From positions 320-64,319 of the forward strand of contig CAIOPG010000011.1 of assembly GCA_903860135.1 (NCBI GenBank): a stretch of DNA of 64,000 bases. Direction: 5' to 3'. The notes beneath the pieces were generated by a model. It did no database searches. It was not told the DNA's origin and was given only the letters and a program-made list of their open reading frames with translations. Source of the DNA: Candidatus Omnitrophota bacterium (lineage in GTDB: Bacteria > Omnitrophota > Gorgyraeia > Zapsychrales > Fredricksoniimonadaceae). The translations under genes and the position numbers were made by a program. The first letter of the stretch is position 1; each line of letters begins with the position of its first letter. Positions 6,001 through 38,421 of this stretch are shown here, piece by piece.

Positions 6001-8340
6001 ATATTTCCTGTTGATAAACGACCAATATCGCTCCAATTAATATTCGCATGCGCCAAAACAGCAACATCTTCCCAATTGATACCTTTTTGAGAAAAAGATT
6101 GGATTTCAGACCAATTAACACCTGCTGTTGACAACGAACTCACACTATTCCAATTTATACCTTTTACAGTCATCGAAACGACATCATTCCAATTAACTCC
6201 GGAAAGCGTAAGCGCATTAACATCTGCCCAGTTTACACCCGCCGCTGAAAGTGCCTGTATATCATTCCAGTTGATACCTGCCCTTGAGAACACACCAATA
6301 TCCTGCCAATTCACACCAGCAGCAGAAAGAGTGGCTATATCATGCCAATTGATCCCAATTTCAGAAAAAAGTGCTAGATCTCCCCAATTAATACCATTGG
6401 TAGTCATCTGACCAATATCAGACCAGTTAATACCATTACTAGACATCGTGGATATATTATCCCAGTTAACGCCGGCGACGCCCATTCGCGTAAGATCGTC
6501 CCAATTGATCGCGCGTGTTGATAACACCAAAATGTCATTCCAGTTAATACCTGTATTTGATAATATATTTATATCATTCCAATTTACTGAAGCTTGACTC
6601 ATGCGCTGAATATCTTCCCAATTAACCCCGGCAGTTGACAACACCTGAATATCAGACCAGTTAATAGTTCCAACAGAAATCGCCTGAATATTTTCCCAAT
6701 TAATTCCAACCGTAGTCAGCGCATTAAAATCATCCCAGTTAATTCCAGCCTGACCCAACACAGCCATGTCTGACCAGTTAATTGCCGCTAAAGATATTTC
6801 CTGAACATCCGACCAATTAATACCGCGAGCGGTCATTTGTCCAATATCTAGCCAATTCACGCCGGCAATAGATAAAATAGAAATGTCATTCCAATTTACG
6901 CCAATTCGGGAAAATGATTGTATGTCAGACCAGTTAACCCCAGCCATTGATAATGACTGGATAGCATTCCAATTAACCGCCGTGTTGGACATGGCCTGAA
7001 TATCTTGCCAGTTAATACCACTGCGGGCTATAACGCCGATATCTTGCCAGTTAATTCCAGCCACAGTTAAGGCGTTAATATTGCTCCAGTTCACCCCTGC
7101 GGTTGTCAATACTTCAACATCTACCCAGTTTAGTCCTGAGGCCGACATGCTTTGCATATCGGACCAATTGATCCCCGCCTCTGCCAGCACTTGTAAATCC
7201 GACCAATTAACACCCACCGCGGACATCGAAGAAAAATCAGACCAATTAATACCTGCACGGGTTAAGGATTGAATATCCTCCCAGTTAACTCCGGTCGCAG
7301 ACAAAACATCAATATCCGACCAGTTAACACCCGCAAGGGAAAGATCCGCTATGTCTGACCAGTTAACCCCGGCAATACTTAAAGCCTGTATATCCTGCCA
7401 GTTTACCCCAGAATAAGAAAGCGCGTGAATATCATCCCAGTTAATGCCGATCTTCGCCATGGCACTTAGATCAGACCAGTTAACACCAGCTGTTGATAAA
7501 GCAGCGATATCATTCCAATTGATCTGTGCTTGTGAAATTGTGTCAATATCTGACCAATTAATTCCCGCTTTTGATAAAGATTGAACATCACTCCAATTAA
7601 CACCTGCCGCCGAGAGTGTCCCGATATCATTCCAATTGATTCCCGCTCTCGTCATCGCTTGAACGTCATTCCAGTTCAACCCTGCCCGGCTTAAGGCATC
7701 AATATCCTGCCAATTAATTCCTTTTGTAGTTAATGACTGAAGATCATTCCAGTTCACACCACTGCTGCTCATGCGCGCAATGTCATTCCAATTTATTCCG
7801 GCAACAGTCAACGAATTTAAATTATTCCAATTAATGCCTGCCCGTGTTAGCACATCAATATCATACCAATTCAATCCCCGTTCTGACATGACCGTCAGAT
7901 CATCCCAATTAATATTCGCCGTTGTGAGCTCCGCTAAATTGTCCCAATTAACCCGATCAGGCCAATTAACACCAGCACCAGTCATAATGGCAAAATCCTG
8001 CCAATTTATGCCGGCAACTGATAAGGCATTTAAATCATTCCAGTTAATGCCACTATTGGCTAAGGCCGCAATATCTTGCCAGTTAATACCAACCGTCGTC
8101 AATCTGGCAATATCCTGCCAATTCACAGCAGCTTCAGAAAAAGCACCAATATCATGCCAATTAATACCGATACCAGACATAATTTGAATATCTTGCCAGT
8201 TTATGCCTTGGCGCGTCATGGCATAAAGATCATCCCAATTGATGCCTGCCGCACTCATCGTACTGACATCGGCCCATTTAATCCCGGCTTCTGTTAATGC
8301 CTTGGCATCAGCCCAATTAACAGTCCCCATCTGATCTGTT
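1..8340 (-). repeat. Tandem array of ~39-bp coding repeats (about 200 units) inside the giant gene. The DNA units are very similar (recurring ccaattaacaccagc core)
   Basis: Periodicity of 39 nt seen directly, for example ccaattaac at 183, 222, 261 and 300. All plus-strand shadow ORFs stay in the same frame, so the array is in-frame throughout. Confidence 0.9.
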
Positions 8341-9440
8341 ACTGTCTTTATGGCCACGACATCCGAACGCAAAACACCTAAATATTCCCAGTTCACATCT
8401 GCCGCTGCCATCCTGGCCACATCATCCCAGTTAATAGCCGACTTGCTCATTTGGCCTAGGTTATCCCAATTGACTTTGTCCAAACTTGCTTTCATGGCAT
8501 TAATATTATCCCAATTCATGCCTGACGTGTTCATCGCTGTAATTTCAAGAGGAGAGTAGGCGTCATAATGCGTTCCGCTCCAATTAATACCGAATGAAAT
8601 AAAATATGAATCCGTCTTGCTGCTGGGGGTCCAGGCATCAGCACTCACCGTACCGCTGTCGTACGCACACCAGTCATTGGCATCACTGACCTTCGGATCC
8701 CAAGTCTTTTCCGTCGTTAAGCCACCAGTGCCATTCGATTTAAAAATCGTATGTGTCAAACACTCGGCATTGACGTCTGTTATGTCCTGGCGCTTGCCAT
8801 CCATTTCGATCCAGCTGTAAACAAAATAGGCACCGGCACCAGAAGCGGCACTGCCATCCCATATAGCCGCAAACTTTGCTCCTGTACCAGCAAAAACGTC
8901 AAATGCCATTGATACAGCTGAAGTAAGCCCTTCGGCTGTAGCGACCAGCGTGTACATATTGCCTGGACGGGTGATCGACGTGTTTTTAAAAGTCGCGATC
9001 CCATTAACAACCATCATACTTGTTGTTCCCGTCAACATCCCCGCACCGGGATTGTTTTGAATAGCAAGAGTAATTAGGGTTGTATTGTTGCCAGCGACGA
9101 CATTGTTATTGGCATCAAGAACGGCCACCACCGGCTGGCGTTCAAAAACATTGTCGTGCTTGGCACTCGAAGGGATGACAAGAAAAGCAAGATGTGTCGC
9201 ATCGCCATAGGCTAAAGAACCATTGGCACCTGAACTGGCACTGGTAGTTCCGGTCTGCCCACCACCTGTAAATATATCTGTACCTATGGTAGCCGTTGCA
9301 TTACCGTTTTCTGAACCACCTGAAAACTGTGCAAAAGCCAAAGGCATTACGAAAATATTAATTATAAGAAAAATAACTAATATAGCGTCGTATGCCCGCA
9401 TGGTTTGAATTGTATTTTTTGATTTTTTAAATATTATCAT
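1..9440 (-). CDS. Giant secreted/surface repeat protein, partial (3' end beyond the left window edge). Signal peptide, Ig-like (Big) N-terminal region, then ~200 tandem 13-aa repeats G-V/I-N-W-x-D-I-x-x-L-T-x-A. Start is ATG at 9440 or the in-frame ATG at 9401
   Basis: Minus-strand frame (plus triplets starting at positions divisible by 3) carries ATG at 9401-9399, preceded by ATG 9440 and a stop at 9446-9444. Hand translation from 9401 to ~8290 gives MRAYDAILVIFLIINIFVMPLAFAQ... followed by NW repeats with no stop. Spot checks at ~1-180, 1263-1320, 2403-2460, 4983-5040, 7743-7800 and 7923-7980 found no TAA/TAG/TGA in this frame. The ORF is absent from the supplied track, presumably because it has no in-window stop. 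Confidence 0.7.
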   Translation of the reverse strand, partial: MIIFKKSKNTIQTMRAYDAILVIFLIINIFVMPLAFAQFSGGSENGNATATIGTDIFTGGGQTGTTSASSGANGSLAYGDATHLAFLVIPSSAKHDNVFERQPVVAVLDANNNVVAGNNTTLITLAIQNNPGAGMLTGTTSMMVVNGIATFKNTSITRPGNMYTLVATAEGLTSAVSMAFDVFAGTGAKFAAIWDGSAASGAGAYFVYSWIEMDGKRQDITDVNAECLTHTIFKSNGTGGLTTEKTWDPKVSDANDWCAYDSGTVSADAWTPSSKTDSYFISFGINWSGTHYDAYSPLEITAMNTSGMNWDNINAMKASLDKVNWDNLGQMSKSAINWDDVARMAAADVNWEYLGVLRSDVVAIKTVTDQMGTVNWADAKALTEAGIKWADVSTMSAAGINWDDLYAMTRQGINWQDIQIMSGIGINWHDIGAFSEAAVNWQDIARLTTVGINWQDIAALANSGINWNDLNALSVAGINWQDFAIMTGAGVNWPDRVNWDNLAELTTANINWDDLTVMSERGLNWYDIDVLTRAGINWNNLNSLTVAGINWNDIARMSSSGVNWNDLQSLTTKGINWQDIDALSRAGLNWNDVQAMTRAGINWNDIGTLSAAGVNWSDVQSLSKAGINWSDIDTISQAQINWNDIAALSTAGVNWSDLSAMAKIGINWDDIHALSYSGVNWQDIQALSIAGVNWSDIADLSLAGVNWSDIDVLSATGVNWEDIQSLTRAGINWSDFSSMSAVGVNWSDLQVLAEAGINWSDMQSMSASGLNWVDVEVLTTAGVNWSNINALTVAGINWQDIGVIARSGINWQDIQAMSNTAVNWNAIQSLSMAGVNWSDIQSFSRIGVNWNDISILSIAGVNWLDIGQMTARGINWSDVQEISLAAINWSDMAVLGQAGINWDDFNALTTVGINWENIQAISVGTINWSDIQVLSTAGVNWEDIQRMSQASVNWNDINILSNTGINWNDILVLSTRAINWDDLTRMGVAGVNWDNISTMSSNGINWSDIGQMTTNGINWGDLALFSEIGINWHDIATLSAAGVNWQDIGVFSRAGINWNDIQALSAAGVNWADVNALTLSGVNWNDVVSMTVKGINWNSVSSLSTAGVNWSEIQSFSQKGINWEDVAVLAHANINWSDIGRLSTGNINWDDFARLTMTGVNWNDLQSLTLRGINWDDVQSLSLTGVNWVDIGILASRGVNWLDIAHFSNVGINWDEMQNLSIKGVNWADVSSLSLSGVNWADISHMSAAGVNWSDINILSIRGINWHDIQVLSENGINWNDIGRFSTAGVNWADIVALSEAGVNWLDISSLGIAGVNWANIENMSTIGINWADISRMAGAGVNWSDVNALSSGGINWSDIGVWSTAGVNWIDIGVLSVTGVNWSNIETLTTAGINWTDIQDLTTAGVNWFDIETMARIGINWTDVQTLTRSAINWQDINRLSTQGVNWADIQQMSLTGINWGDITAVTSASINWSNLQVLSTAGVNWDDIQVLSLNGINWIDIGSFSGAGINWNDIANITAKGINWDDIELLSTRGVNWSDIQSLSTRGINWLDIETLSKTGLNWTDVSVMALAGINWNDLAVFSTKGINWNDINTLSRSGLNWADVANLSIAGVNWSDIGTLSIAGVNWNDLQTMSVAGVNWNDIQTLSNEGINWDDLNVLLNRGINWNDVTALTHAAVNWSDLQLFSQKGINWNDVATMTLSGVNWSGVGALAAAGVNWNDINVMTQRGINWTDISALANIGINWDDIQSISSAGINWSDAVVLTRVGINWNDINNLTNAGVNWLDIGAMSKAGLNWSNLNYLTTAGVNWSDISALSLAGMNWTDLALVSDAGINWSDINTLTRAGVNWENLTDLSEAGINWEDINSITRTGVNWSDLGVLSLSGINWSDLNQLTTKNINWSDISSLTLSAVNWDNIQALSEAGVNWSDLSAITQVGVNWTDLNRMSTSGVNWSNITTLTSAGINWNDVNKLTLAGVNWNDIQSLSDAGVNWSDLSVLTTAGVNWFDVMSVTTKAINWQDIQAMHGLGINWSDLQSMTVTGINWNNLTTLTAAGVNWLDVGALSQSGVNWSDITRMTMAGVNWSDINVFTTAGVNWLDVGSLTHAGVNWSDIQVLSNDGINWSDIQTLSESGVNWADLTALTRNGVNWQDISALARNGINWSDLNQLTVAGVNWSDLNKLTIAGINWSDVNILTANGINWLDLNSMTVAGVNWSNLNALTVAGINWVDFNALSTARINWTDINIFSNNNINWLDVARLTTTSINWTDINTLTEAGINWDDIQVLANNGINWSDLNVLTRGGLNWNDINRLTVAGINWSDVNALTMAGVNWQDIVNMSTSGVNWNNIQTMTIAGINWSNLDVLSSAGINWDDISILSVSGVNWSDIGLLSSVGVNWSDVNRLTEAGVNWSDLNRLTVAGVNWMDIGSLSAVGVNWTDISALTMAGVNWSDINTLTVSGVNWSDIMFMSQSGINWQDLNQLSISSINWNDFQQLFKQAVNWTDIQVLTTVGVNWDNINSISYSAINWVDLSVLTQAGVNWLDVSELTKSGINWSDVNTLTLSGINWDSVQTFSEAGINWNDITIMSRNGVNWQDIAVLAATGINWLDINVLTRAGVNWSDVQSLSSLGINWNDINALTRGGVNWSDLESMTHAGINWSDINELTKAGVNWSDVQTLSTTGLNWNDIQIFSKAGINWVDLNALSRVGVNWANIQTMTTLGINWQSIDEMTASGINWHDVSRMSIAGINWSDIGALSLNGVNWNDINALTYAGVNWSDISRMTAAGVNWSDVDVLSNIGVNWSDINVITTSGLNWSDIGVMSSRGVNWQDIAEMSIAGLNWSDVHVLSQAGVNWDDVQVLADAGINWSDVNTLTLSGINWDSIQTLSEASINWSDVTVMTQQGVNWLNIAVMSSNGINWADIHTLTQAGVNWDDIQSISHAGINWSDINIFSGAGINWLDINRLTLAGVNWTDITRMSVAGVNWSDFGVLSLAGVNWLDVGALTAAGMNWVDMNAMTRAGVNWVDISRMSSLAVNWNDLNILTTAGLNWDDITRMTIAGVNWSDINVLTLAGVNWSDVNVLTEAGVNWDNLNTLTESAINWTDVTALTNNGINWSALQFLTTSSINWLDITVLTRNGVNWQDIAVMSE

Positions 9441-9480
9441 TAATTAAAATCATTATAAAACGGTGGTTTTTAATGTGTCT

Positions 9481-9509
9481 ATTATGTTTAATATCATTAA
9501 ATACTTCAA
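9481..9509 (-). promoter_or_regulatory. Candidate sigma70-type promoter for the giant gene (minus strand: -35 TTGAAG, 17-nt spacer, -10 CATAAT)
   Basis: Reverse complement of 9481-9509 reads ttgaag-N17-cataat, about 35-70 nt upstream of the candidate start codons, in an AT-rich intergenic region. Confidence 0.3.
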
Positions 9510-9590
9510 TAAAATTCTAAGAATCTTTTAAGAAATTATTTTTTCTTTCGGTAAGAAAGAATTAAGCATATCCTCGTCGAGGAACATGGT

Positions 9591-11219
9591 TCACGGAGAA
9601 CTCCGCGCGAATCGCGCACCATAATAAATGCCTGCCGTGGCATCACGTCTTTGTTTAAATCCTGAACTGTCAGGGTCTTTGACAGCATACGTTCTGGCAG
9701 ATATCTGGAAATTCCTGATATTGGCTGTTTGAAAATCACCGCCGCGATACCCGATACCGATGGTTTTGTTAACCCCGCAGCGCGCATCGCTCATATCTAT
9801 GCCAGGCCAATCAACATTGGTCGCATTGCCTTCATGCCCAGAAAAACTGGAGAGTTCACCATCGCCGTGTGTCCCCAAAAACTGCCGGCCTTCTGCGCGG
9901 CCTATCGTGACCACAGGCTCTGCCAGATTACCTGAAAGTTCCATATTCCCGTAGTAACCGGCGCCGCTCGTCGTGCGTGAGGTGGAACTTTCAGCAAATA
10001 TCCCCGCGCGCAAAGGGCCTTTTTGCCCTTCAGCAATGCCGCCAGCACGGCCATCGCCAGACGTCCATCCCAGGGCATTGCGGTTTAAATTCACAGCACC
10101 GTCAAAAAGTGCTTCCGTACCATTCTCGTCGTCATTTGCAGGAAAAATCTGGGCGGCTTCCGCCGCATTATAACTTGTAGTTCCCCAAGCAAATTCATCA
10201 GCGACAGGATTCACGTCGACGCCTCGCGCGGCTTTTTCAAATTCAAGTTCTGTCATCGGACGTAACCCAGCCCAGTCTGCATAAGCCGCCGCATCAGGCC
10301 AGGAAACATAACTCATCGCACGGGCCGGTCTTGTCGTGATCGCTGCCTTTGAAGGAAAAAGAGGATCCCATGCCATGGTATTGCGATCAACGACACGGGT
10401 AGAATTCTTGCCCCCCTCGACAGCGGATGTTATATCCCTGGAATGTTTGGCCGCTATTGACAATGTATTAAAGAAAGCCACCCATTCGCCTTCTGTCAAT
10501 TCATACTTCATCAAATAAAAAGACTTGTACCCTTTGGGGAATGAGTTCGGCAGTAAAAAGATACTGCCTGAATTATTTTCACCGGAAGCACCTGTTGAAT
10601 CATAATAAAATCCGCCAGAAGGCGTGCTTGTCGTGGTAATGGCATTTTCACTGGAAACATACCAAGGGCTATCATCCGCTGTCCCTTTTTTAAAACGGAA
10701 GGGTGATGCGCTGGCTCCATCGCCTGCAAAGAATGCCCCTTCGGGAATATAAACCATTTCAATCCCAAAAACTTTAGTCAATGTATTGGCCGCCATAGCT
10801 GTATCGTCAGAAAGACCATCTTGGGCATAATTCCAAACAAAATGAACCCCATTGGCTTGTACATATCCTGCCGCTATATCCGTTCTGCGAAGAAAAAAAC
10901 CTTTCAAATCCTGAGGAACAAAAACCTCAACACATTGCGGAGCAATAAATCCAGCTGGATTCAAACCCGCCCCCCCCATGCTGGCATGATGCCAAGTTTG
11001 GCCTGCATCTGTTGAATACTTCATGAATATCCATGCCGCGTCATGTGACAATATTGTCCGCCAGCTGTTATTCTGCTGGATATCAACAGTAAAAGTCATC
11101 CGATGAGCAGATGATTCATTTTTATAAAGGTCAAAATGATTTAAAACAAGATTATTAGCAAAAGCAGGGATCGTGCACGAAAGGATTACAAAAACGATAA
11201 GAACAATTTTTTTTAACAT
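9591..11219 (-). CDS. Secreted protein with C-terminal FGE-sulfatase (formylglycine-generating enzyme / SUMF1-like, GldK/PorK-type) domain
   Basis: N-terminal signal peptide MLKKIVLIVFVILSCTIPAFA. Motifs WPDAAAYADWAGLRPMTELEFEKAARG, GYYGNMELSGN and YRGGDF match the FGE-domain signature. Confidence 0.7.
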   Translation of the reverse strand: MLKKIVLIVFVILSCTIPAFANNLVLNHFDLYKNESSAHRMTFTVDIQQNNSWRTILSHDAAWIFMKYSTDAGQTWHHASMGGAGLNPAGFIAPQCVEVFVPQDLKGFFLRRTDIAAGYVQANGVHFVWNYAQDGLSDDTAMAANTLTKVFGIEMVYIPEGAFFAGDGASASPFRFKKGTADDSPWYVSSENAITTTSTPSGGFYYDSTGASGENNSGSIFLLPNSFPKGYKSFYLMKYELTEGEWVAFFNTLSIAAKHSRDITSAVEGGKNSTRVVDRNTMAWDPLFPSKAAITTRPARAMSYVSWPDAAAYADWAGLRPMTELEFEKAARGVDVNPVADEFAWGTTSYNAAEAAQIFPANDDENGTEALFDGAVNLNRNALGWTSGDGRAGGIAEGQKGPLRAGIFAESSTSRTTSGAGYYGNMELSGNLAEPVVTIGRAEGRQFLGTHGDGELSSFSGHEGNATNVDWPGIDMSDARCGVNKTIGIGYRGGDFQTANIRNFQISARTYAVKDPDSSGFKQRRDATAGIYYGARFARSSP

Positions 11220-11250
11220 AGTTTTTATTCGAGGTTAAGGGTTGATCAGC

Positions 11251-12831
11251 CTACAGGCCTTCCGCCGAACGGACACCGCGCCCGCCATAGGTAGATGTGG
11301 CATCAGAGGAACTTGATGCCGCTTCACTGCGATCTGAGATCGAAAGATGTGTTGACGCGTCATTCCATGATCCACCACGAAAACCAGCACCAGCCGTTGT
11401 TGTGATACCTCGGGACACATCCATATTTAATCCTGGCCATGAGATTGAATCAGCATTGCCTTCAAAACCTGACGCCGTTGTTAACACGCCATCACCGTTA
11501 GCACGCGTAAAAACAAGCCCCGCCGACAAACCAACGGACACGGCCCATTCTTTCGCATTGCCTGAAAGTTCCATGGCACCATAACTGCCGGCACCGGAAA
11601 GAATGCGGTCGGTAGAATCCGTGGCAAAAATACCGCCACGTAAGGTGCCCCGACGATAAGCTGTTCCAAGAGCGGCGTCTCCGCCAGAAATCAACGTTCC
11701 GCCGAAATGGGCATTAGCACCATTAGTATTTGATGACTCAAGCCCATCTTCAGCACTGTTTGAAAGTGCTGTCAGTGGCTGGATGTCCGTTGTCCCCCAG
11801 GCAAATTCACCATTTACAGGGAGATAGGGACCGCGCGCCGCTTTTTCAAATTCAAGCTCAGTGATCGGCCTTAACCCCGCCCAATCGAGAAAGGCACACA
11901 AATCAGGCCAAGATAAAAACGTCATGGCTCTGTTTGGCCGCTCACTCGAGCACATCAACGGTGACCCAGCACAGGCTATTGTATTACGGTCAATCACAGC
12001 GTCAGCATTTTTATGTGATACGTTTGTAACATCATGATTGGCACGGCCCGGCGCAGATAATGAATTGATAAATTCAACCCATTGTCCTTCTGTTATTTCA
12101 TATTTCATCATATAAAATGCTTCAAACCCTTTAGGGAAAGTAGCGGGAATTATAAATGCAGAACCTGAAGCAAATTCACCGTTATTGCCTGCTGAAACAT
12201 AATAATAGGCATTTGAAGATGCGGCTGATACATTGATGGCAGACTCACTGGTGATGGGCCAAGGATTGTTATCAACACCGCCACGTTGAAACGCAGCCGC
12301 TGACGCAGCATAATCCCCGGCGTAAAACATCCCGCGTGGAACATAGACCATTTCATAAGCTGTAACAGTGGCAGTCACTTGACTTTCAGCACTTAAACCA
12401 GCTGTTTCATAATTAACAGTCAGCATCACATTCGTTGTTGCTACAGCCGAAGACATATGATTGGAAGTACGACGAATAAAAGCACCAACTTTATCGGAAG
12501 GAATCTGAATCTCAAGTTCAGTATTGGAACCGGCGGAAACACCGGCAGGATTTAAACCATTGATCGATAGCCGGCACAGCTTCTTTTCAGGTGATGCTGC
12601 GGTTACATCCTGCAAATGAACGGTAACCCAAGCCGCATCATGATTGATCTTGTTCCGCCAAGAGTTTTGCCAGGCAAGATCAAAAAAAACAGCAATAGTT
12701 TTTGAATTAGTATCTCTTGAGCCAAGATGAACATTGGTGACTTTTAAATCATTAGCCCATGCGCCAAATGAGAAAAAAACAACACAAAAGAAAAACACAA
12801 CTCCTAAAATCCCTGAAATTCTAACGCGCAT
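11251..12831 (-). CDS. Paralogous secreted FGE-sulfatase-domain protein
   Basis: Signal peptide ...FSFGAWA/ND. WPDLCAFLDWAGLRPITELEFEKAARG, GSYGAMELSGNAKEW and FRGGSW motifs. Same architecture as the upstream paralog. Confidence 0.7.
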   Translation of the reverse strand: MRVRISGILGVVFFFCVVFFSFGAWANDLKVTNVHLGSRDTNSKTIAVFFDLAWQNSWRNKINHDAAWVTVHLQDVTAASPEKKLCRLSINGLNPAGVSAGSNTELEIQIPSDKVGAFIRRTSNHMSSAVATTNVMLTVNYETAGLSAESQVTATVTAYEMVYVPRGMFYAGDYAASAAAFQRGGVDNNPWPITSESAINVSAASSNAYYYVSAGNNGEFASGSAFIIPATFPKGFEAFYMMKYEITEGQWVEFINSLSAPGRANHDVTNVSHKNADAVIDRNTIACAGSPLMCSSERPNRAMTFLSWPDLCAFLDWAGLRPITELEFEKAARGPYLPVNGEFAWGTTDIQPLTALSNSAEDGLESSNTNGANAHFGGTLISGGDAALGTAYRRGTLRGGIFATDSTDRILSGAGSYGAMELSGNAKEWAVSVGLSAGLVFTRANGDGVLTTASGFEGNADSISWPGLNMDVSRGITTTAGAGFRGGSWNDASTHLSISDRSEAASSSSDATSTYGGRGVRSAEGL

Positions 12832-12897
12832 ACCACTCCTTTATTCGCTCGGCCTTTTCTTAGGAAAAAAAGCCTTTTCCAACAAAATAGGGATTTC

Positions 12898-13761
12898 TTA
12901 TCTGGCTACATTCTGATGACCTGAAAGTTCAGGCTTATCCAATTTTGAGTCAATATGACTCCGGAGCGCAAGCCTCGCCGCGATTATCTTTTCTTCAACT
13001 AACTTTCGATCTTCGGCCTGAGGTTTTAAATAAAGATACCATTGATAATGCTTAAGGGCCGTTTCCTGATCACCCACAAATTCACCACTGACATAGGCGA
13101 GATTGTAATGGCCATCAGCATCATAAGGTGTTAGATCAACAGCCTGATAATATTCGACCGCCGCACGCTGATACTCGCCTCGTTCAAAATATACGTTACC
13201 CATATTGTAGTGCGCCCGTGCCAGTTCTTCTTTGAACTTTTCATCTTCAGGAGCAGTATCTCCACCCTTTTGAAGAACTTCACCGGCTTTCTTTTCTACA
13301 TCAAACGCTGGAATATCCGAACTCACAGCAACGGGTTGCTGTACGACTTTTCTGTGACCTAAATCCTGCGAATCCTGCAGATCTGTTTCAAACTTCTTCA
13401 TCCGCACTTCAAAAGACTCCTGCTGTTGCGATAAACCAGATTTTAAAGCTTCGATTTCCTTTGTCTGTTTCACATTCTGGTTCTCGGCACGGCGAATTTC
13501 CTTGATAAACTCTTCCCGTTCACGGCTCATCTGTTCGACACGTTTCGCCTCAAATTCCTTTTCATTGCGCACACGCTCAAGTTCTTTCTTTAACATTTCA
13601 GGGTCAGATTGGGCGCTCTGCACAACGCCTGTGCCTGCAGCTAATACGGCGGCAGGTGCTGATAGGAACAGACCACCGATGACCGTAGCGAAAAGAAAAC
13701 CAAAATTAGTAATTCTTGATGGCCTCATAGAGAACCTCTCCCCGAAGAGTTTGACGCTCAT
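12898..13761 (-). CDS. Secreted coiled-coil / TPR-repeat protein (pilus or secretin-assembly-type accessory)
   Basis: Signal peptide, E/K-rich coiled-coil segment, and a C-terminal TPR-like YNMGNVYFERGEYQRAAVEYYQAV...YNLAYV. 4-nt overlap with the upstream secretin gene. Confidence 0.5.
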   Translation of the reverse strand: MSVKLFGERFSMRPSRITNFGFLFATVIGGLFLSAPAAVLAAGTGVVQSAQSDPEMLKKELERVRNEKEFEAKRVEQMSREREEFIKEIRRAENQNVKQTKEIEALKSGLSQQQESFEVRMKKFETDLQDSQDLGHRKVVQQPVAVSSDIPAFDVEKKAGEVLQKGGDTAPEDEKFKEELARAHYNMGNVYFERGEYQRAAVEYYQAVDLTPYDADGHYNLAYVSGEFVGDQETALKHYQWYLYLKPQAEDRKLVEEKIIAARLALRSHIDSKLDKPELSGHQNVAR

Positions 13762-15353
13762 TTGTTGTAGGCCTTAGACGGCTTTATTGTCCCGTCAGGT
13801 GCCTTGTAATTTTCTTTGCCGGTTAAAATGTGCGGTGTAATAAAAATTACAATTTCTGACGAGGAAATGCTATCCGACTCGCGACTGAACAATTTATCAA
13901 TATACGGAAGGTTCATCAGGATCGGAAGGCCTTTTTTGCTGTGGATCTTGTCGTCCTTGCGCAAACCAGCCATGATAATGGTTGTTCCATCTTCAACCAC
14001 AAGGGTGGTCTCAACTTCGGTTTTATTAACCTGCGGGATACCACCGCCCTTGGAGGTGATCTTGTCAACCACTGAAGAAATTTCAGGACGTAATTTCATG
14101 GTTATCATGCCGTCATCATTAATTGTCGGTGTAACATTCAGTTTTAAACCGACATCAATAAATCTGACATCTTCACTCGTGATCGCATTGTCACCCGTAC
14201 CGGAAACCGTGGAGATAATATACGGCACGGTATCACCAATATGGATGCGAGACTCTTCGTTATTAACAGCCATGATCTTGGGATTTGAAAGCAACTTGGT
14301 ATCACTCACCTGTTCCATGGCACGAATGTTAAAGGCAAATCTGTCCGCGTTAATATTCCCTACCGCGATCTGACCAAAGCTACTGGATAAATTATCCGTC
14401 GAAGACATACCACTTTTATCAAGAAAAATATTTTTAAACTGCAGGTTGGGAGTTGCTTTGTTACTCGAAGCGATGTTCCAGTCAATGCCGGCGTCATAAC
14501 TTGGCTTGAATATGACCTGCAGGATGCGCGCTTCGATAAGAACTTCCTTCGTTGGTTCATCTAAATGACGAACGATCTTTTCAACCTCGTCTTTACGCCC
14601 GGGGAACACACGCACCACAAGCTGGTTTGAGCGTTCATCGGCGGATATCGAACCGACGGATTTCGCATCAATACGGGCACGCAGTTTGTCTGCGATAATA
14701 TTAGCTTTGGCATACTGCAAATTGTAGACCAGTGTTTCCAACGGCTGCTCAATTTCAGCGAGAACTTTCTTCATCTTGGCAATGGAATCAGGTGTATCGA
14801 TCAATACGACCGCACCGGTATCTTCATCTATAATGATCTTTCCGACATTGCTTTTCATATTGTCAAGCGCGGCAAGGACATAACTGGGTTTGGCATATTG
14901 CAAACGGAACGTAGCCACTACGGTCTTGTCGCTGAATTGTTTGCCGAACATCGCTTCATATTCAGCCCCTGTCATCACTTGAATAATATTGTTCTGGATA
15001 CTGTAAGCCAACCGGCTTGAAATCGTTACGATATCCAGCGCATCCTTGATCGCGACATTGTCAAGGAGAACCGTTGTCCGGCCATCTACCGACGGGCTTA
15101 TAACAACATTAAACTCACCCTTCATGGCAAGGAACTTGAGCACATCTACGATATTCATGTCGCGCACATCCAGCACGATCTTGCGTGCCATGCGCTCTTC
15201 AAGTATTTCTTTCGGCTGAGTAATAACAAGTGGCTTTGGTTGTTCTGGCTCTTCAGCCGTTGCCGGGCATGATCGTGCGATCGCTATCAGCAATGCCATG
15301 CCAGCGCACAATGTCAACATGATCCTGCGGGGGGAATGTGTGTGGTTTGTCAT
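13758..15353 (-). CDS. Secretin (GspD/PilQ family outer-membrane channel)
   Basis: C-terminal secretin-domain motifs GDTVPYIISTVSGTGDNAITSEDVRFIDVGLKLNVTPTINDDGMITMKLRPEISS, VETTLVVEDGTTIIMAGL and SSEIVIFITPHIL. N-terminal signal peptide. Confidence 0.85.
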   Translation of the reverse strand: MTNHTHSPRRIMLTLCAGMALLIAIARSCPATAEEPEQPKPLVITQPKEILEERMARKIVLDVRDMNIVDVLKFLAMKGEFNVVISPSVDGRTTVLLDNVAIKDALDIVTISSRLAYSIQNNIIQVMTGAEYEAMFGKQFSDKTVVATFRLQYAKPSYVLAALDNMKSNVGKIIIDEDTGAVVLIDTPDSIAKMKKVLAEIEQPLETLVYNLQYAKANIIADKLRARIDAKSVGSISADERSNQLVVRVFPGRKDEVEKIVRHLDEPTKEVLIEARILQVIFKPSYDAGIDWNIASSNKATPNLQFKNIFLDKSGMSSTDNLSSSFGQIAVGNINADRFAFNIRAMEQVSDTKLLSNPKIMAVNNEESRIHIGDTVPYIISTVSGTGDNAITSEDVRFIDVGLKLNVTPTINDDGMITMKLRPEISSVVDKITSKGGGIPQVNKTEVETTLVVEDGTTIIMAGLRKDDKIHSKKGLPILMNLPYIDKLFSRESDSISSSEIVIFITPHILTGKENYKAPDGTIKPSKAYNK

Positions 15354-15961
15354 AACTTAATCGTTATCTCCTCGTTTGCGTAACTGAAGACCGCCCTGTC
15401 GGTGTAAATAGTCTTGACCGTAACTCCCTCAAGCTTGTCGCCTTCTCTCAGAAAACGCGTTTCTTTTGTGGTGAGATTTTCCAGCATAACTGTTGCCGAT
15501 TCTGGGATATCAAGCCAGGCTACCCCCACAAACTTGTATTTCGCCATTTTTGCCTGCATGACCACACGGTCTGAAGGCAGCGCCTGTTCAGCGGCCGCAC
15601 GCTTTTCAAAAGGCTGAAAAATATTCCGGGCCGAAACTTTGCCGAGATACCAAGAGGCTTCTTTCATCCGTGGAATAGATACCGAACCTTCGTCTTGCAC
15701 CACAGGCAAGTCAACCGCAATGCGCACCTGCGCATCGAGGCGGGAACGTCCGTTAAGCAATTCCATGACCATAAAAATAAATCCTGCCACAACGGTTAAA
15801 AAAAGAACAAGGTTGATCTGGCGCAATGAAACGGCAATCCTCGACGGAGAAGATTTTTTAGGGATCGAAGCAGGGGCAACAACCAACGCAGCCTCTTTGG
15901 CTTTTTGGGTAGCCTCGATGATCTTGAGAAGTTTTTCTTCTGCGGTTTCTTTCTTGGCCAT
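15350..15961 (-). CDS. GspC/PilP-like single-pass inner-membrane protein (secretin-associated)
   Basis: Cytoplasmic basic N-terminus, one TM helix (LVLFLTVVAGFIFMVMELL), periplasmic beta-rich C-terminus. 4-nt overlap with the secretin gene. Confidence 0.4.
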   Translation of the reverse strand: MAKKETAEEKLLKIIEATQKAKEAALVVAPASIPKKSSPSRIAVSLRQINLVLFLTVVAGFIFMVMELLNGRSRLDAQVRIAVDLPVVQDEGSVSIPRMKEASWYLGKVSARNIFQPFEKRAAAEQALPSDRVVMQAKMAKYKFVGVAWLDIPESATVMLENLTTKETRFLREGDKLEGVTVKTIYTDRAVFSYANEEITIKL

Positions 15962-16058
15962 CGTCGCTGTCGTTGGTTAAATCAGTTTTATATTAACTAC
16001 TTTTTCGTTTCAAGAACATTTTTATATTAACATAGAGGAAATGCCCCGCAAGTTGTTT

Positions 16059-17036
16059 TTAAACTTTCTTAACAGACAAAAATCTGTTGCTCATTAAAGT
16101 CATCCCGCCGGCAACAAATCCCGCACTGCGCGCAAATGCCCGCAACCACATAACCGCTCCCGCAAGCACCGCCAATATTATAGATTTGAAAATTATAATG
16201 CCAAATATAAATTCAAAAACAAGAAGTGTCCCGCCGACAACGCTCAGCCATGGCCAAAAGAACACCAGCGGCCCGTGCGCCAGTGTCCATGGCACCTCAA
16301 CAGCATCTTTCCAGAATGTATACCCGTCGCCACCCATCATGCGGGGGTGCTCCCCGTACATCTTCGCGCGCCAGAACCCATGACGAAATTGCTCGCGCAA
16401 ATACCGCCTCAACGATTCCTGATGATAATGATCGACGCGGACATCGGGTAAAAAAAGAATGCGCCCTCCGCCGGCAGCAATGCGATAACTGAGGTCATTG
16501 TCTTCCCCGCTTGCCTGGCGGTAACCGGCGTTAAATCCGCCGGCAGCTTCGAACACCGCACGGCGAACAGCAAAATTATAGCTCCCGAAGAACCGCGGAT
16601 ACTGTGGCATCAGGGTGCGGTGGCGATAGATGATTTCAGCATGAATGATGCGTGCCAGCCACGCATGAGGATTGGCGATGCCATAGCTTCCCGATACAAC
16701 CGCAATATCCGGACGGTCAAAGCCCTGCATCATACCGGCAAGCCACCCGCGCTGGGGACAGCAGTCTGCATCCGTAAAAAAAAGAAACTCCCCGCCAGCT
16801 TCCCGGGCACCACGATTGCGCGCGCCTGCCGGACCGGTATTCTCCTGACGAATAAGGCGCACCTCCGGATAACGCGCCACAACATCTTTAGTCTGGTCTG
16901 TCGAACCATCATCGACCACCACCAGCTCCACAGAACCGGCATAAGCCTGCGCCATGACAGCCTCAATGGCTGAGGCGATCGTTTCCTGCGCGTTATACGC
17001 CGGGATAATGACCGTTATCCGCGCCTCAACGGGCAT
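16059..17036 (-). CDS. Family 2 glycosyltransferase
   Basis: VIIPAYNAQETI...VVVDDGSTDQT GT-A/DXD motifs. C-terminal TM segments. Confidence 0.8.
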   Translation of the reverse strand: MPVEARITVIIPAYNAQETIASAIEAVMAQAYAGSVELVVVDDGSTDQTKDVVARYPEVRLIRQENTGPAGARNRGAREAGGEFLFFTDADCCPQRGWLAGMMQGFDRPDIAVVSGSYGIANPHAWLARIIHAEIIYRHRTLMPQYPRFFGSYNFAVRRAVFEAAGGFNAGYRQASGEDNDLSYRIAAGGGRILFLPDVRVDHYHQESLRRYLREQFRHGFWRAKMYGEHPRMMGGDGYTFWKDAVEVPWTLAHGPLVFFWPWLSVVGGTLLVFEFIFGIIIFKSIILAVLAGAVMWLRAFARSAGFVAGGMTLMSNRFLSVKKV

Positions 17037-17382
17037 CTTTGCCGCCTTTCAACTGCTTTAATTCCAGCTCGAGCAAGCCGATGGCCTGCGCCATCCGGTC
17101 ATTGCGCCTGTTTTGCTGGCAAAGAAAGACAGTCATCAAAAGGCTGACGAAAACAAACGCACACAAGATGGCGAAGAAAATAAAGTTACTGGCCAGCTCA
17201 AAACCGCAAAAAGCCGAAATAGAAAAAAGAAGGTCCTTAAAGATGGAACAGACGACGCCCGTCGACGACAGAAAAAGCCACACAAAAGCATACTTGAACG
17301 TCAATCTTTCCCGACGCACAAGCTCTACGACCAGGATCAGGACGATCAAAGAAAGAATCGCGGCAAGCCACTGGATGGTCAT
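17026..17382 (-). CDS. Small DUF2304-type membrane protein (GT2-associated)
   Basis: 118 aa with three to four TM helices, sandwiched between two GT2 genes with overlapping ends. Confidence 0.5.
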   Translation of the reverse strand: MTIQWLAAILSLIVLILVVELVRRERLTFKYAFVWLFLSSTGVVCSIFKDLLFSISAFCGFELASNFIFFAILCAFVFVSLLMTVFLCQQNRRNDRMAQAIGLLELELKQLKGGKDAR

Positions 17383-18095
17383 GGTTCATATACCTTTCTG
17401 TTCTTTAATGTATGCAAAAGAATGGCACCCGATACTTTAAGCATATAATAAAATGGCTTCAGAAAAGAGATAGAACTGATCCCGGACGTGCGTGAACGCA
17501 TCACAACCGGCACTTCAATATGAGAACCTCCCAGGCGATGAACAACCATAGCGGCTTCCGGCTCGGGGAAGTCCGACGGATAATACGTCGCAAATACGCT
17601 TATAAACCGTTTGCCGCAAGCGCGGAAACCCGATGTCGGGTCCGTCACCGTACGCCCTGTCAGAAAACTAATGAGCACGCTCAGGAACCTGATGCCAACC
17701 CGGCGGAAAGCCGAAGAACGAAACCCCTGATTGCCCGCCATAAAACGACTGCCAACAGACATATCCGCGCGGCCTTCGGCCACAGGACGCACAACGTCCA
17801 ACAAAAAAACAGGGTCGTGCTGGGCATCCCCGTCCACCTGGATAGCGATATCATAGCCATGCGCCAGGGCATAACGGTAGCCGGTCTGAACAGCACCGCC
17901 GATACCCAGATTAAAAGGCAACCGCACGGCATCGGCTCCGGCAGCCGTAGCGCGCGCGAAGGTATCGTCAGAAGACCCGTCGTCGATCACCAGCACATGA
18001 ACAGGCACCGGCTGAGCCAGCACCTCGCCGACGATCGCCCCGATCGATCCCGCCTCATTAAAAGCAGGGATAATCACAAGGACTTTGGGCGTCAT
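17379..18095 (-). CDS. Family 2 glycosyltransferase (dolichyl/polyprenyl-phosphate sugar transferase-like)
   Basis: VIIPAFNEAGSI...LVIDDGSSDDT motifs. Confidence 0.8.
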   Translation of the reverse strand: MTPKVLVIIPAFNEAGSIGAIVGEVLAQPVPVHVLVIDDGSSDDTFARATAAGADAVRLPFNLGIGGAVQTGYRYALAHGYDIAIQVDGDAQHDPVFLLDVVRPVAEGRADMSVGSRFMAGNQGFRSSAFRRVGIRFLSVLISFLTGRTVTDPTSGFRACGKRFISVFATYYPSDFPEPEAAMVVHRLGGSHIEVPVVMRSRTSGISSISFLKPFYYMLKVSGAILLHTLKNRKVYEP

Positions 18096-19345
18096 CGCCG
18101 AAGCCCCCGTGACATATACAGATACTTCGCGGCCAGGTTCACCGCTTCGCTCTTACCTGTAACTGTCAAACTCTCATCAGGCATAACCCCGTCAAACGGA
18201 AACGGTCTTCCGTCGGGAAAATGTCCGCGGGCATTGACCAGTGCCAAGGTAGATCCGTCGGAAAGATCGAACATGCTTTTCAGGAGAACCTGCCCGGCTG
18301 TCTGCTCTCCCAGGACAACAGCACGCTTGTGATCTTGCAACATGCCTGAAAAAAGCTCGGCCGCACTCCCAGTCCCTTTGTTAACAAGGACAGCCACAGG
18401 CCAGTCCACCTGAAAGCGCGCCGGAATAACGGGAATATCCAGGTCTGCGCGCGGCCGTTTGCGACCTTCAAAATAAACCAGCGCTTTCCCGTTGGGCAGG
18501 AAGAATGAAGATATGGCCCGCGCCGCCAGCGGCGGACCACCTGGATTATCCCTGAGATCAAGGACAAGACCCTTGGGATTCCTGGGGCCAATCAAGCCCA
18601 GCAACCGGCTAAAATCATCCGGGGTCCCCTTATTGAACTTGGCGATCTCAAGGCAATAAATATCCGCCACACCGGTCGGACGAAGAAAAACCGTCTGTTT
18701 AAAATATTCGCGGCAAAGCACCTCGATGGTATGCGGGGCTCTGGTTTGACCGGAGAAGAAATTAATTAAAATCGTCGTGCCTTCCAAAGGATTGAGCATT
18801 TCTTTCAGCCGCGCCTCACCGAGCTTCAGGACATCCTGATCGGCTATGCGGACGATCAAGTCATTTTCTCTCATCCCCTTCTCATAGGCATCAGACCTTG
18901 GTTCAATGAAATCGATCAGCATGCCTTTTTCCGTCAGATGACCTTCGATGCCAAGATCGATCTTCTTGCCGTAGACTTCCTTGGCAAACTCCTGCGCGGG
19001 TTTCGGCGGCAGGAAACGGGAAAATTTGTCGTCTGGCTGTTTGAGCATATCGACAAGATACGCCGCACTGCGCCAGCGGATGTAATCCTGGCTCTTGCGT
19101 TGACGCAGGATACCGGGATAAATCTGCGCATCGAAAACTTCAAGGAAACGATCGAAGTCGGAACGGTTCAGTTCAAAGAAATACTGTGCTTCCATCAATG
19201 AATAGATCTCTTCAAAGAAAGGCAGGTATTGCTGGTGAGGCGGCTCTGCCGCACGGGCAACTGTGTTCAACGCCAAAGGAGAAATAAAGAAAGCGACCAT
19301 CACAATGCCGCATAGATAAGACCGTCCTGCCTGAAATAAACGCAT
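18092..19345 (-). CDS. S41 family C-terminal processing peptidase. Start likely Met at 19345 (signal peptide MRLFQAGRSYLCGIVMVAFFISPLALNTVARA), not the track start 19474
   Basis: PDZ-like region and S41 catalytic region (GTGSAAELFSG, VLVNKGTGSAAE). The track ORF extends upstream over the neighbouring gene. Confidence 0.75.
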   Translation of the reverse strand: MRLFQAGRSYLCGIVMVAFFISPLALNTVARAAEPPHQQYLPFFEEIYSLMEAQYFFELNRSDFDRFLEVFDAQIYPGILRQRKSQDYIRWRSAAYLVDMLKQPDDKFSRFLPPKPAQEFAKEVYGKKIDLGIEGHLTEKGMLIDFIEPRSDAYEKGMRENDLIVRIADQDVLKLGEARLKEMLNPLEGTTILINFFSGQTRAPHTIEVLCREYFKQTVFLRPTGVADIYCLEIAKFNKGTPDDFSRLLGLIGPRNPKGLVLDLRDNPGGPPLAARAISSFFLPNGKALVYFEGRKRPRADLDIPVIPARFQVDWPVAVLVNKGTGSAAELFSGMLQDHKRAVVLGEQTAGQVLLKSMFDLSDGSTLALVNARGHFPDGRPFPFDGVMPDESLTVTGKSEAVNLAAKYLYMSRGLRR

Positions 19346-19389
19346 AACACACCCCGCTGAAACCACATTACGATCAAAAAGAACCTTTG

Positions 19390-20028
19390 TTACACCGCCC
19401 CCCAGGCCTGCGCCAGAGCCCGCTTGAACTGGGGGACATCCAGGCTGATATTCGTTACAAAATCCCGGTGGCATCTTCCCCGTCGGTAATCAGGCACCCG
19501 TAAAGGCATCTTTAAACACAGGCTTACCAGGGAAAGGTCCATCGCGTAAAGGATCGTCCCGTGATGAAGGACATGCCCGCGCCCGCGCCGCTGGGCATTG
19601 CCGGAAAATTTCATTTCACCAGGGTCAAGCGCAAGGTCGCAGACCGGACGAAACAAGGCCGCGACACCGCAATCTTTTAACGCCTCAGCCACTTTCCCGA
19701 GAATGAATTTATAAGAACGGGTGATCGACGCCATATCCGCATGACGCGTCTTGGCAAGAACCAGGGAAAAATTCAGGCAACCAGGCCCCTGCAATACTGT
19801 TCCTCCGCCGGATGAACGTCGCACAACAGCCACACCAAATTTCTCACAGGCAACGGTATCGACATCATCACCCAAGACGCCTGTCCGTCCCAATACCACA
19901 AAGAACGAAGGGGACTCCCAAAAGCGCAACACTTCCCCCCCTCTGCCGGCATCGGCTTCAGCCAAAAGACGGTCATCATGATCAAGATTTTCCCGGGGAT
20001 CTTCAAAAGAAAGATCTTCGCGCCTCAT
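19390..20028 (-). CDS. Lipoate-protein ligase / octanoyltransferase family protein (BPL/LPL catalytic domain)
   Basis: RRSSGGGTVLQGPG...HVLHHGTILY motifs typical of the LplA/LipB/LipM family. Adjacent to gcv genes. Confidence 0.6.
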   Translation of the reverse strand: MRREDLSFEDPRENLDHDDRLLAEADAGRGGEVLRFWESPSFFVVLGRTGVLGDDVDTVACEKFGVAVVRRSSGGGTVLQGPGCLNFSLVLAKTRHADMASITRSYKFILGKVAEALKDCGVAALFRPVCDLALDPGEMKFSGNAQRRGRGHVLHHGTILYAMDLSLVSLCLKMPLRVPDYRRGRCHRDFVTNISLDVPQFKRALAQAWGAV

Positions 20029-36136: not shown

Positions 36137-36162
36137 TGACGCCCCAAAAAACAAGGGCTAGA

Positions 36163-38331: not shown

Positions 38332-38386
38332 TGTTCGACCTACGAAGACCAATACTTCATATTCCCATGACTCAAATGACGTAGTA

Positions 38387-38415: not shown

Positions 38416-38421
38416 AACTTT

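Follow-up and report, generated by a model that had tools for sequence, protein, structure and literature searches.

A secretin gene cluster with two FGE-fold paralogs beside a giant repeat gene in Omnitrophota: probable outer-membrane module of a split T2SS-like machine

A 64,000-nucleotide stretch of DNA from a Candidatus Omnitrophota bacterium (contig CAIOPG010000011.1; hereafter the window, at its full length) carries five co-oriented minus-strand open reading frames (ORFs), which encode a GspC-like protein, a secretin, a tetratricopeptide repeat (TPR) protein and two secreted paralogs with a domain resembling formylglycine-generating enzyme (FGE), FGE_B and FGE_A. They lie directly upstream of a giant gene for a protein made largely of 13-residue repeats centred on Asn-Trp (NW). 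This cluster is probably the outer-membrane-proximal module of a split machine that resembles a type II secretion system (T2SS) and is dedicated to the giant protein, whose N-terminal [YF]xGG motifs would be bound by FGE_A and FGE_B. The gene content, gene order and conservation of the locus are established, as are the way in which its halves complement each other in relatives, the lack of catalytic residues in the FGE-like proteins and the match in number between motifs and paralogs. From these we infer how the giant protein is exported and that the FGE-like proteins physically bind its motifs. The giant ORF crosses the left end of the window, and the region beyond it is seen only in relatives.

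The initial annotation of this DNA described five packed minus-strand genes upstream of a giant gene, and the ORFs lie exactly at its coordinates, with junctions and profile matches that agree with it. The GspC-like protein (15350..15961, minus strand; 203 aa) has a short cytoplasmic N-terminus, one transmembrane helix and a C-terminal beta domain. Its stop shares 4 nt with the start of the secretin gene, and the two are translationally coupled. The secretin, of the GspD/PilQ family (13758..15353, minus; 531 aa), consists of a signal peptide, an N0/STN-like domain, two Secretin_N domains and a C-terminal secretin domain, and its gene in turn overlaps by 4 nt that of the TPR protein (12898..13761, minus; 287 aa), which has, after an N-terminal signal or anchor, a coiled-coil region and, at the C-terminus, two or three TPRs. 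After a gap of 66 nt follows FGE_B (11251..12831, minus; 526 aa), a secreted protein with the signal peptidase I site A|ND, an N-terminal beta-sandwich and an FGE / C-type-lectin fold, and after another 31 nt its paralog FGE_A (9591..11219, minus; 542 aa), which is 41% identical to it and has the mature N-terminus NN[LV]; 150 nt then separate FGE_A from the giant ORF.

In Pfam, the secretin matches PF00263 (2.5e-46) and two copies of PF03958 (Secretin_N; 1.2e-20). Its top match in the PDB is the T2SS secretin GspD (5wln; 1.2e-34), with PilQ proteins near 1e-31, and in NCBIfam it reaches 243.8 bits with PilQ (TIGR02515; cutoff 284.35) and 223.7 bits with GspD (cutoff 351). The window copy of the GspC-like protein matches NF041515 (GspC_delta) weakly (E=2.5e-4, under the 150-bit cutoff) and also gives a weak T2SSB match in Pfam, while 18 of 19 GspC-like orthologs match NF041515 independently (best 4.6e-6); a search of PDB sequences with the ortholog profile gives no match. 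The TPR protein matches TPR_11 (2.2e-10) and, weakly, PilW (4e-6; 26.5 bits, cutoff 154) and Tgl (4e-4; 19.8 bits, cutoff 225), and its PDB matches are generic TPR proteins together with PilF (2fi7) at 0.0066. It has no lipobox Cys and is possibly a secretin-assembly or scaffold factor. There is no match to PilP. FGE_B and FGE_A match PF03781 (FGE-sulfatase; 1.1e-13 and 1.3e-12, respectively), spanning only about positions 35-150 of the 255 in the model.

Scanning a single genome for each GTDB species gave 77 related loci, whose six-frame ORFs were then searched with the window proteins. The order GspC-like, secretin, TPR, FGE_B, FGE_A, giant is kept in 52 of them, and most of the others are the same array broken at a contig end; a single FGE-like gene is present in three loci (L058, L064 and L065), and nine of the 77 are lone FGE-like genes in other contexts. 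The cluster is clearly conserved as a unit with the giant gene in these relatives, and on this count the initial annotation stands. FGE_A has thousands of relatives, of which the best 120 are full length and 59-92% identical, the named ones all being labelled Candidatus Omnitrophota. The median identity to the window proteins across 56 loci is 62% for the secretin, 61% for FGE_A, 55% for the TPR protein, 52% for FGE_B, 41% for the N-terminal region of the giant and 39% for the GspC-like protein, so that the conservation of FGE_A equals that of the secretin and exceeds that of the N-terminal region of the giant.

The giant ORF starts at 9440 on the minus strand and continues for more than 3146 aa off the left end of the window. 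Its product has a signal peptide, for which cleavage is predicted at AFA|Q, and a conserved mature N-terminus. Directly after the cleavage site, two [YF]xGG motifs (FSGG and FTGG) lie 18 residues apart (9261..9326, minus), in the sequence FSGGSENGNATATIGTDIFTGG. In all 57 loci that have both paralogs and a visible N-terminus of the giant, the mature protein begins as A|Q[YF]xGG and a second [YF]xGG follows 17-19 residues on (18 in 47 loci), while the three loci with one FGE-like gene have a single motif (AAIYTGG, 3/3). The background frequency of [YF]xGG is 1.1e-3 per residue.

The same pairing is found in another phylum. Lone FGE_A-like genes were examined in Bacteroidota, namely Flavobacterium (three loci), Pedobacter, an unclassified Bacteroidetes and Reichenbachiella; the six products are 31-39% identical to FGE_A, agree with it in the N-domain and the A|NN site, and lack a C-terminal domain of the type IX secretion system (T9SS). 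Each of the six genes is followed by one for a secreted protein whose signal peptide gives way almost at once to the motif, in the form AQ[YF]xGG in five cases and GKYYGG in the sixth (L067), and in the five the motif is repeated in 4-5 tandem [FY]xA[YF][FLM]GG units. Por_Secre_tail, the T9SS C-terminal sorting domain, is detected in four of the six partners; of the other two, one is cut at a contig end (L083) and one lies outside the scan (L078). Since the motif-bearing partner is kept with both a secretin and a T9SS, the conserved partner of the FGE-like family is the N-terminus of the downstream surface protein. FGE_A and FGE_B are therefore best read as non-catalytic binding partners of the N-terminus of the giant fibre, a role that is predicted from sequence. 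On a bolder and less probable reading, an FGE-like protein and a [YF]xGG-tagged surface protein would constitute a new cross-phylum recognition module serving T2SS and T9SS alike. The pairing is a testable hypothesis of protein-peptide recognition, and the same two-gene module occurs with T9SS cargo in the genetically tractable Flavobacterium. In three loci of Flavobacterium and other Bacteroidetes (L075 2943-16305, L085 3626-11383 and L084 6122-13105) the module is preceded by a LuxR-type response regulator, and the motif-bearing T9SS protein combines PKD and Ig_7 repeats with Por_Secre_tail; a TPR histidine kinase is also present in L075 and L085. The LuxR-type regulator beside the FGE-like gene and the T9SS protein suggests a regulated two-gene module.

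Past its motifs, the giant protein has an Ig-like (Big-type) domain at about residues 77-205 (8826..9212, minus), a stretch similar to domains that stand in tandem in thousands of large proteins, and then, up to about residue 285, another non-repeat domain without an assigned fold. The repeat array (3..7958, minus) consists of 204 in-register copies of 13 residues without any indel, with the consensus x-G-[IV]-N-W-x-D-[ILV]-x-x-[LM]-[ST]-x, and continues past the window. Relatives have about 35 to about 600 repeats, and their giants end in a conserved helical C-terminal module (...VVVK[AST]W[YF]ES[DE]). Pfam searches with the N-terminus and the repeats give nothing or spurious low-complexity matches (Ntox33, CW_7, etc.), and a search of PDB sequences with the repeats gives only chance-level matches to the LDL receptor. 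An AlphaFold2 (AF2) model of 20 NW repeats, computed from an alignment of the window's own repeats, suggests only one short helix per repeat and is otherwise unreliable (pLDDT 47.6). A HMMER search with the first 330 residues of the giant against 1.84 billion representative sequences is swamped by the ubiquitous tandem Ig-like domain and is uninformative on the NW family. The N-glycosylation sequon N-W-[ST] was considered as a feature of the repeat and rejected, since S or T follows NW in just 83 of 218 repeats and is thus not systematic.

No gene for a GspE/PilB ATPase or a pilin adjoins the cluster in the window. The sole T2SSE-family gene of the window is a PilT-sized ORF of 352 aa (48479-49537, minus; PF00437 5e-46), which lies about 33 kb from the cluster beside housekeeping genes of the recO/ybeY type, with housekeeping and defence genes between. 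The lack of an ATPase and of pilins stated in the initial annotation is an artefact of where the window stops, within the giant gene. What follows this gene in relatives is one for a protein of 435 aa (P435), an F-type-ATPase-like operon and genes for GspE, GspF, GspG and minor pseudopilins. P435 starts with a signal peptide, is anchored by a transmembrane segment at its C-terminus, belongs to a family confined to Omnitrophota (123 clusters) and directly follows the giant in all six neighbourhoods in which the 3' end of the giant gene is visible. In one of these (L038), the giant is just 868 aa long, so that the genes after it can be read: P435 and then F-type-ATPase-like genes, the flank stopping at ATPase beta. 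The other five have the identical order of NW-repeat 3' end, P435, ATPase-like operon (alpha, epsilon, c-like, a 75-aa ORF, OSCP/delta, gamma, beta), GspE, GspF and GspG. The junctions are tight, with 3-9 nt between the giant gene and that of P435 and a 2-nt gap between ATPase beta and GspE. In these relatives GspE has the architecture MshEN+T2SSE, in some with PilZ, a gene for a peptidase MA often follows that for GspF, and N-methyl pseudopilins are encoded beside GspG. Among the precomputed Pfam matches, no a-subunit is recognisable in the F-type-ATPase-like operon. The PilZ (c-di-GMP-binding) domain is fused to the downstream GspE in L086 (9059-11278) and L088 (10776-12728).

Nearly all contigs of the relatives end 2-10 kb into the giant gene, and such breaks systematically keep the two halves of the locus apart in metagenome-assembled genomes (MAGs) from short reads and make the size of the giant usually invisible. 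In three MAGs the halves stand at the ends of separate contigs with the breaks inside the giant gene (L040/L086, from Ca. Zapsychrus exili; L023/L087; L062/L088). Contig CAZNDZ010000001.1 (1.34 Mb) has both halves together (L032 and L079) with a giant of 8087 aa between them, and a JGI contig has a version of 7686 aa; where complete, the giant ranges from 868 to 8087 aa. A metagenome scan with GspF provided one extra usable locus (L081, from the same organism as L079), which extends to where the array finishes: GspG (T2SSG 8.7e-33) is followed by an N_methyl protein, a GspJ-like protein, GspK (T2SSK_1st 1.8e-11), a PilM/PilN fusion and PilO, and the array closes with a TPR protein and a 1130-aa ORF without a Pfam match, next to which lies a gene on the opposite strand. 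Up to this end, the downstream half contains neither a second secretin nor a GspC. The GspC-like protein and secretin upstream and the E-to-M-equivalent set downstream, which lacks a secretin and a GspC of its own, thus together make up one complete T2SS-like set. The genome of the window presumably carries the downstream half too, to judge from relatives with FGE_A identities of 43-61%. The idea of the initial annotation that this is a dedicated system for export or assembly of the giant is supported.

The FGE-like proteins were compared in three alignments (22, 38 and 12 sequences), of which the smallest covers Omnitrophota and Bacteroidota. Over the 12 diverse members 58 columns are invariant, many of them Asp, Glu, Arg or Lys, while none of the three alignments has an invariant Cys or His or a near-invariant Cys, and the Cys of the signal peptide is not conserved. 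This lack excludes Cu-FGE chemistry for FGE_A and FGE_B, which appear to be catalytically inactive. A canonical FGE acting on a sulfatase was considered and rejected in view of the missing conserved Cys pair, the lack of a sulfatase among the window ORFs scanned and the lack of CxPxR, the FGE target motif for which the initial annotation recommended a search, in the giant and in the secreted cluster proteins. On this point that annotation is supported, but a place of the pair with GldJ, GldK and PorK is not: all members aligned lack a lipobox and carry the site xA|NN[LV] for signal peptidase I, the GldK model (TIGR03525) is matched by FGE_B only, with 17.3 bits against a cutoff of 350, and the GldJ model is matched neither by FGE_A and FGE_B nor by the six Bacteroidota homologs. 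Scores in the EgtB/SenA-type NCBIfam models are 23-26 bits (cutoffs 360-420). Judged by these residues and profiles, FGE_A and FGE_B are neither canonical FGEs nor members of the PorK/GldK/GldJ group. The AF2 model of FGE_A (mean pLDDT 61, pTM 0.72) has a confident N-terminal beta-sandwich (residues 23-158) and, past residue 158, an FGE / C-type-lectin fold with long low-confidence insertions. The database names "formylglycine-generating enzyme" and "SUMF1/EgtB/PvdO nonheme iron enzyme" given to thousands of such proteins are unsupported, since the catalytic residues are absent.

The family also occurs in other contexts. In one Bacteroidetes locus (L076 9965-14395), an FGE_A-like N-domain and FGE domain are fused to DUF2341, Gly_rich_2 and Laminin_G_3, and a 2185-aa Big_1/CarboxypepD_reg repeat protein is encoded after this fusion protein (14473-21027). 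In L068, the motif of the FGE_A N-domain appears at the C-terminal end of a beta-propeller-rich protein. Some Omnitrophota have a second, lone FGE_A-like gene elsewhere (L072 9962-12684 and L074), which is followed by a gene for a more canonical FGE-domain protein (PF03781 1.1e-41) and not by a giant gene.

In the proposed mechanism, the inner-membrane-anchored GspC-like protein and the secretin would form the conduit, with the TPR protein probably assisting secretin assembly or scaffolding. The Sec signal peptide would bring the giant into the periplasm, where it would be handled by the T2SS-like machine. FGE_B and FGE_A, both targeted to the periplasm, would each clamp one of the two aromatic-x-Gly-Gly motifs near the N-terminus of the mature giant, the FGE fold serving presumably as a scaffold for binding of peptides and ligands. 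The drive would come from the GspE-M half (GspE, F, G, H/I, J, K, PilMN and PilO), and perhaps from the F-type-ATPase-like complex, encoded past the giant gene. The complex of FGE-like proteins and motifs might be a bulky periplasmic stopper or targeting adaptor that, by analogy with the retention modules of giant adhesins of the type I secretion system, holds the N-terminus at the secretin. Alternatively, the FGE-like proteins might be exported along with the fibre as a distal lectin-like tip; T2SS and T9SS both move folded proteins. As regards a tip, the Bacteroidota partners are anchored by their C-terminal domain, and Omnitrophota encode the membrane-anchored P435 right after the giant. 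The fusion to DUF2341, Gly_rich_2 and Laminin_G_3 surface domains in L076 mildly favours an extracellular location of the FGE-like module.

Several points weigh against this picture. The downstream half has never been seen in the window's own clade, in which the contig of each close relative breaks inside the giant gene. We know of no precedent for a secretin or T2SS substrate of 3000-8000 aa, and the giant might take a different path or remain in the periplasm. Both the secretin and the GspC-like protein are under the NCBIfam equivalog cutoffs, and the platform proteins match models of PilM, PilN and PilO and not those of GspL and GspM, so that the choice of "T2SS" over "T4P-like" is a judgement. 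The 57 loci are phylogenetically related, so that the pattern of two motifs with two paralogs and one with one goes back to few independent events. In Bacteroidota there is one FGE-like gene per 4-5 copies of the motif, and a 1:1 stoichiometry is therefore not general. On sequence, a non-redox enzymatic activity of FGE_A and FGE_B is conceivable, and the FGE_A model is only partly confident.

In one alternative, the giant would be modified before export by FGE_A and FGE_B acting as enzymes, for example at [YF]xGG or at the invariant Asn-Trp of each repeat. This is unlikely, although it deserves some weight: the FGE superfamily is mostly enzymatic (FGE, EgtB, OvoA, SenA), many acidic and basic residues are invariant, and the adjacency to a substrate-like gene is strict. 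With no invariant Cys or His, Cu-FGE chemistry drops out, and the N-terminus is a beta-sandwich in place of the DinB-like iron-binding domain of the EgtB/OvoA type, in line with EgtB/SenA scores far under cutoff; CxPxR is missing too, and two paralogs to two motifs fit stoichiometric binding better than catalysis. To a more elaborate scheme, a single-polypeptide pilus, which would be a surface apparatus of a kind not recognised before, we give slightly less credence still: the repeat fibre of 0.9-8 k residues would pass through the T2SS-type secretin, its conserved C-terminal module, held at the inner membrane by P435, would be coupled to a rotary F-type-ATPase-like motor, and the FGE-like proteins would cap the [YF]xGG motifs at its N-terminus. 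If true, the two FGE-fold lectin-like caps would contact prey or host cells, and the machine would merge elements of the T2SS, of the F1-like-ATPase gliding of Mycoplasma and of the FGE-fold track or adhesin systems of Bacteroidota. It is improbable that the FGE-like pair is plain secreted lectin-like cargo of the T2SS-like machine, encoded next to it like many T2SS substrates, with no specific tie to the giant. A signal peptide, a beta-sandwich and a C-type-lectin-like fold are the typical architecture of secreted lectins, and the surface-type domains of the L076 fusion are in keeping with it, but conservation at the level of the secretin is unusual for cargo, and cargo of this kind accounts neither for the number match between motifs and paralogs nor for the cross-phylum pairing with motif-bearing downstream proteins.

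The remaining two alternatives concern the machine itself. As the initial annotation proposed, the secretin system might be self-contained, without ATPase or pilins, and the FGE-like pair might be a periplasmic ring or track of the PorK/GldK/GldJ type round the secretin. A paralog pair adjoins a giant surface-type protein here, like GldJ/GldK and SprB (PMC12635249), and FGE_A is as conserved as the secretin. We nevertheless consider this quite improbable: ATPase-like genes lie past the giant in six neighbourhoods and GspE, GspF and pseudopilin genes in five of them, the lipobox and any invariant Cys are missing in contrast to the invariant and essential Cys343 of GldK and Cys356 of PorK (PMC12635249), the GldK and GldJ models fail as described above, a PorN/GldN partner is not found among the window ORFs scanned, and the Bacteroidota homologs pair with T9SS cargo, so that the conserved partner is the cargo and not a secretin. 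Least probable of all, in our estimate, is synteny without shared function, in which the secretin, GspC-like and TPR proteins serve an ordinary type IVa pilus (T4aP) or T2SS and the giant, FGE-like and F-type ATPase genes are unrelated insertions. Separate GspC/GspD genes are a common arrangement, as in Pseudomonas xcpPQ, where they are encoded apart from GspE-M, and a promoter-like site precedes the giant gene; the genes of this locus type have, moreover, been classed as T4aP (Seymour et al., 2023; PMC10066038). Against it, the supposed insertion is fixed in one order across lineages that are just 43-62% identical, the junctions around P435 and between ATPase beta and GspE are very tight, and P435, found in Omnitrophota only, always directly follows the giant. 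The promoter-like site (TAGACA-18-TATAAT, 11/12 matches; 9452..9481, minus) lies in the 150-nt gap before the giant gene, and a second 11/12 site (16177-16204) is upstream of the GspC-like gene; both are consensus matches only, and 17 such sites are counted versus 12.0 +/- 3.5 in shuffled sequence, which is not clearly in excess.

The locus resembles a T2SS in its secretin and GspC-like protein, in the GspE (MshEN+T2SSE), GspF, GspG (T2SSG), GspJ-like, GspK and L/M-equivalent PilMN and PilO proteins of relatives, and in the encoding of C and D apart from E-M. It differs in that 8-35 kb part the halves (two FGE-like genes, the giant, P435 and the F-type-ATPase-like operon), in that the secretin and GspC-like protein are under the equivalog cutoffs and the roles of L and M fall in relatives to a PilM/PilN fusion and PilO, and in its presumed cargo, a fibre of 0.9-8 k residues. 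From a type IVa pilus it differs in the missed PilQ cutoff, in the lack of a PilP match, in a TPR protein without a lipobox and in the lack of a PilT linked to the locus. Omnitrophota are ultra-small, uncultured and probably predatory or parasitic bacteria. Non-respiratory F-type ATPase genes similar to Mycoplasma types 2 and 3 have been reported from every class of them, lying on 57 of 66 contigs no more than 10 kb from "type-4a pilus" genes, and these "F-type ATPase/T4aP loci", whose machine was named T4aP and tied to attachment and motility (Seymour et al., 2023; PMC10066038), are almost certainly the present locus type. The view of the initial annotation that the combination is not a described system thus fails for the locus type and holds for the FGE-like genes and the repeat protein: the main text of PMC10066038 contains no occurrence of sulfatase, formylglycine or secretin, and mentions no FGE-like paralogs, NW-repeat giant, P435 or N-terminal motif. 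The FGE-like genes are also unmentioned in a 2026 preprint on complete Omnitrophota genomes, and no paper in the literature searched combines Omnitrophota with formylglycine. To our knowledge, the undescribed features are the pair of FGE-fold pseudoenzymes, the fibre of 13-residue repeats and the cross-phylum [YF]xGG pairing.

PorK, GldK and GldJ, the track proteins of the T9SS and gliding apparatus of Bacteroidota, are lipoproteins that form polymers with PorN/GldN and have an invariant Cys disulfide-bonded to partners in the outer membrane (Liu et al., 2025; PMC12635249). FGE_A and FGE_B share with PorK, GldK and GldJ an FGE fold without FGE chemistry, the occurrence as a paralog pair (GldJ/GldK) and the association with a giant repeat adhesin (SprB), and differ in their signal peptidase I site, in having no conserved Cys, in the lack of a PorN/GldN neighbour (general profile scans of the window ORFs give no such match) and in leaving the GldK and GldJ models unmatched at cutoff. 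With FGE (SUMF1) and EgtB, OvoA and SenA they have in common the PF03781 core and the overall fold, but they lack the catalytic Cys pair, the DinB-type iron domain and a sulfatase or CxPxR substrate, and have an additional N-terminal beta-sandwich. Omnitrophota also encode the "Archaeovorin" giants, which are multi-transmembrane, enzyme-rich proteins with SecA-DEAD, with gspD/E/F, rcpC and a Rotamase_2 peptidyl-prolyl isomerase gene upstream and, on the downstream side, pilZ and sugar importers (West-Roberts et al., 2023; bioRxiv 10.1101/2023.11.21.568195). Both loci have a giant gene beside secretion genes of the type-IV-filament kind in the same phylum, whereas the giant described here is a 13-residue-repeat fibre with only a signal peptide, accompanied by FGE-like genes and an F-type ATPase, and identity with that T2SS/Tad-like locus was rejected on its description. 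Two further likenesses are analogies only. Giant adhesins of the type I secretion system (LapA/MpIBP type) carry N-terminal retention modules, to which the present locus has no sequence relationship, and the C-type-lectin-fold receptor binders of diversity-generating retroelements (Mtd, TvpA) have the retroelement that is lacking here.

With about 60% identity in FGE_A and the secretin versus less than 50% in neighbouring housekeeping genes, the locus is among the most conserved surface-machine arrays of the phylum. The array of about 50 kb joins a T2SS-like machine, an F-type-ATPase-like complex, a giant periodic-repeat fibre and catalytically dead FGE-fold proteins, which are not known to work together. 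Upstream of the cluster, a block at 16059..19474 on the minus strand encodes an S41 C-terminal processing peptidase (18092-19474; median identity 48%), a family 2 glycosyltransferase (GT2) resembling a polyprenyl-phosphate sugar synthase (17379-18095), a DUF2304 protein (17026-17382) and another GT2 (16059-17036). S41, GT2, DUF2304 and GT2 precede the cluster, as in the window, in 50 of the 52 full-order loci, and the tie of this block to the cluster is one of conserved adjacency. A membrane protein related to PMT_2/PTPS (GT-C-like; 62044-63720) is encoded at the opposite end of the window, and together with the DUF2304 protein and the GT2 at 17379-18095 it could support periplasmic glycosylation. 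Over positions 1-16000, where the giant gene and the cluster lie, the GC content is 40-48%, while the housekeeping genes alongside (16000-38000) have about 53%, a difference that may come from the amino-acid composition of the repeats or from transfer within the phylum. A tRNA scan of the window finds none, and there is thus no evidence of an integrative island despite the lower GC.

Another stretch of low GC (40-47%) at 38000-48200, likewise with no tRNA nearby, contains defence and toxin genes and looks like a defence island; it encodes a GmrSD_N+HNH protein (39276-40445), an EcoRI-type adenine methylase (40429-41634; 7.8e-130), a protein with a SEC-C motif (41775-43136) and a pair of HipA-like kinases (43777-44652 and 46167-47498). 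A 1087-aa ORF without a Pfam match (24381-27644, minus) is situated directly upstream of a polysaccharide deacetylase gene and downstream of glycine-cleavage genes. Among the few large plus-strand genes is one for a Hel308-like DEAD helicase with an "archaeal helicase domain 4" (36136-38331; PF21280 8.9e-31).

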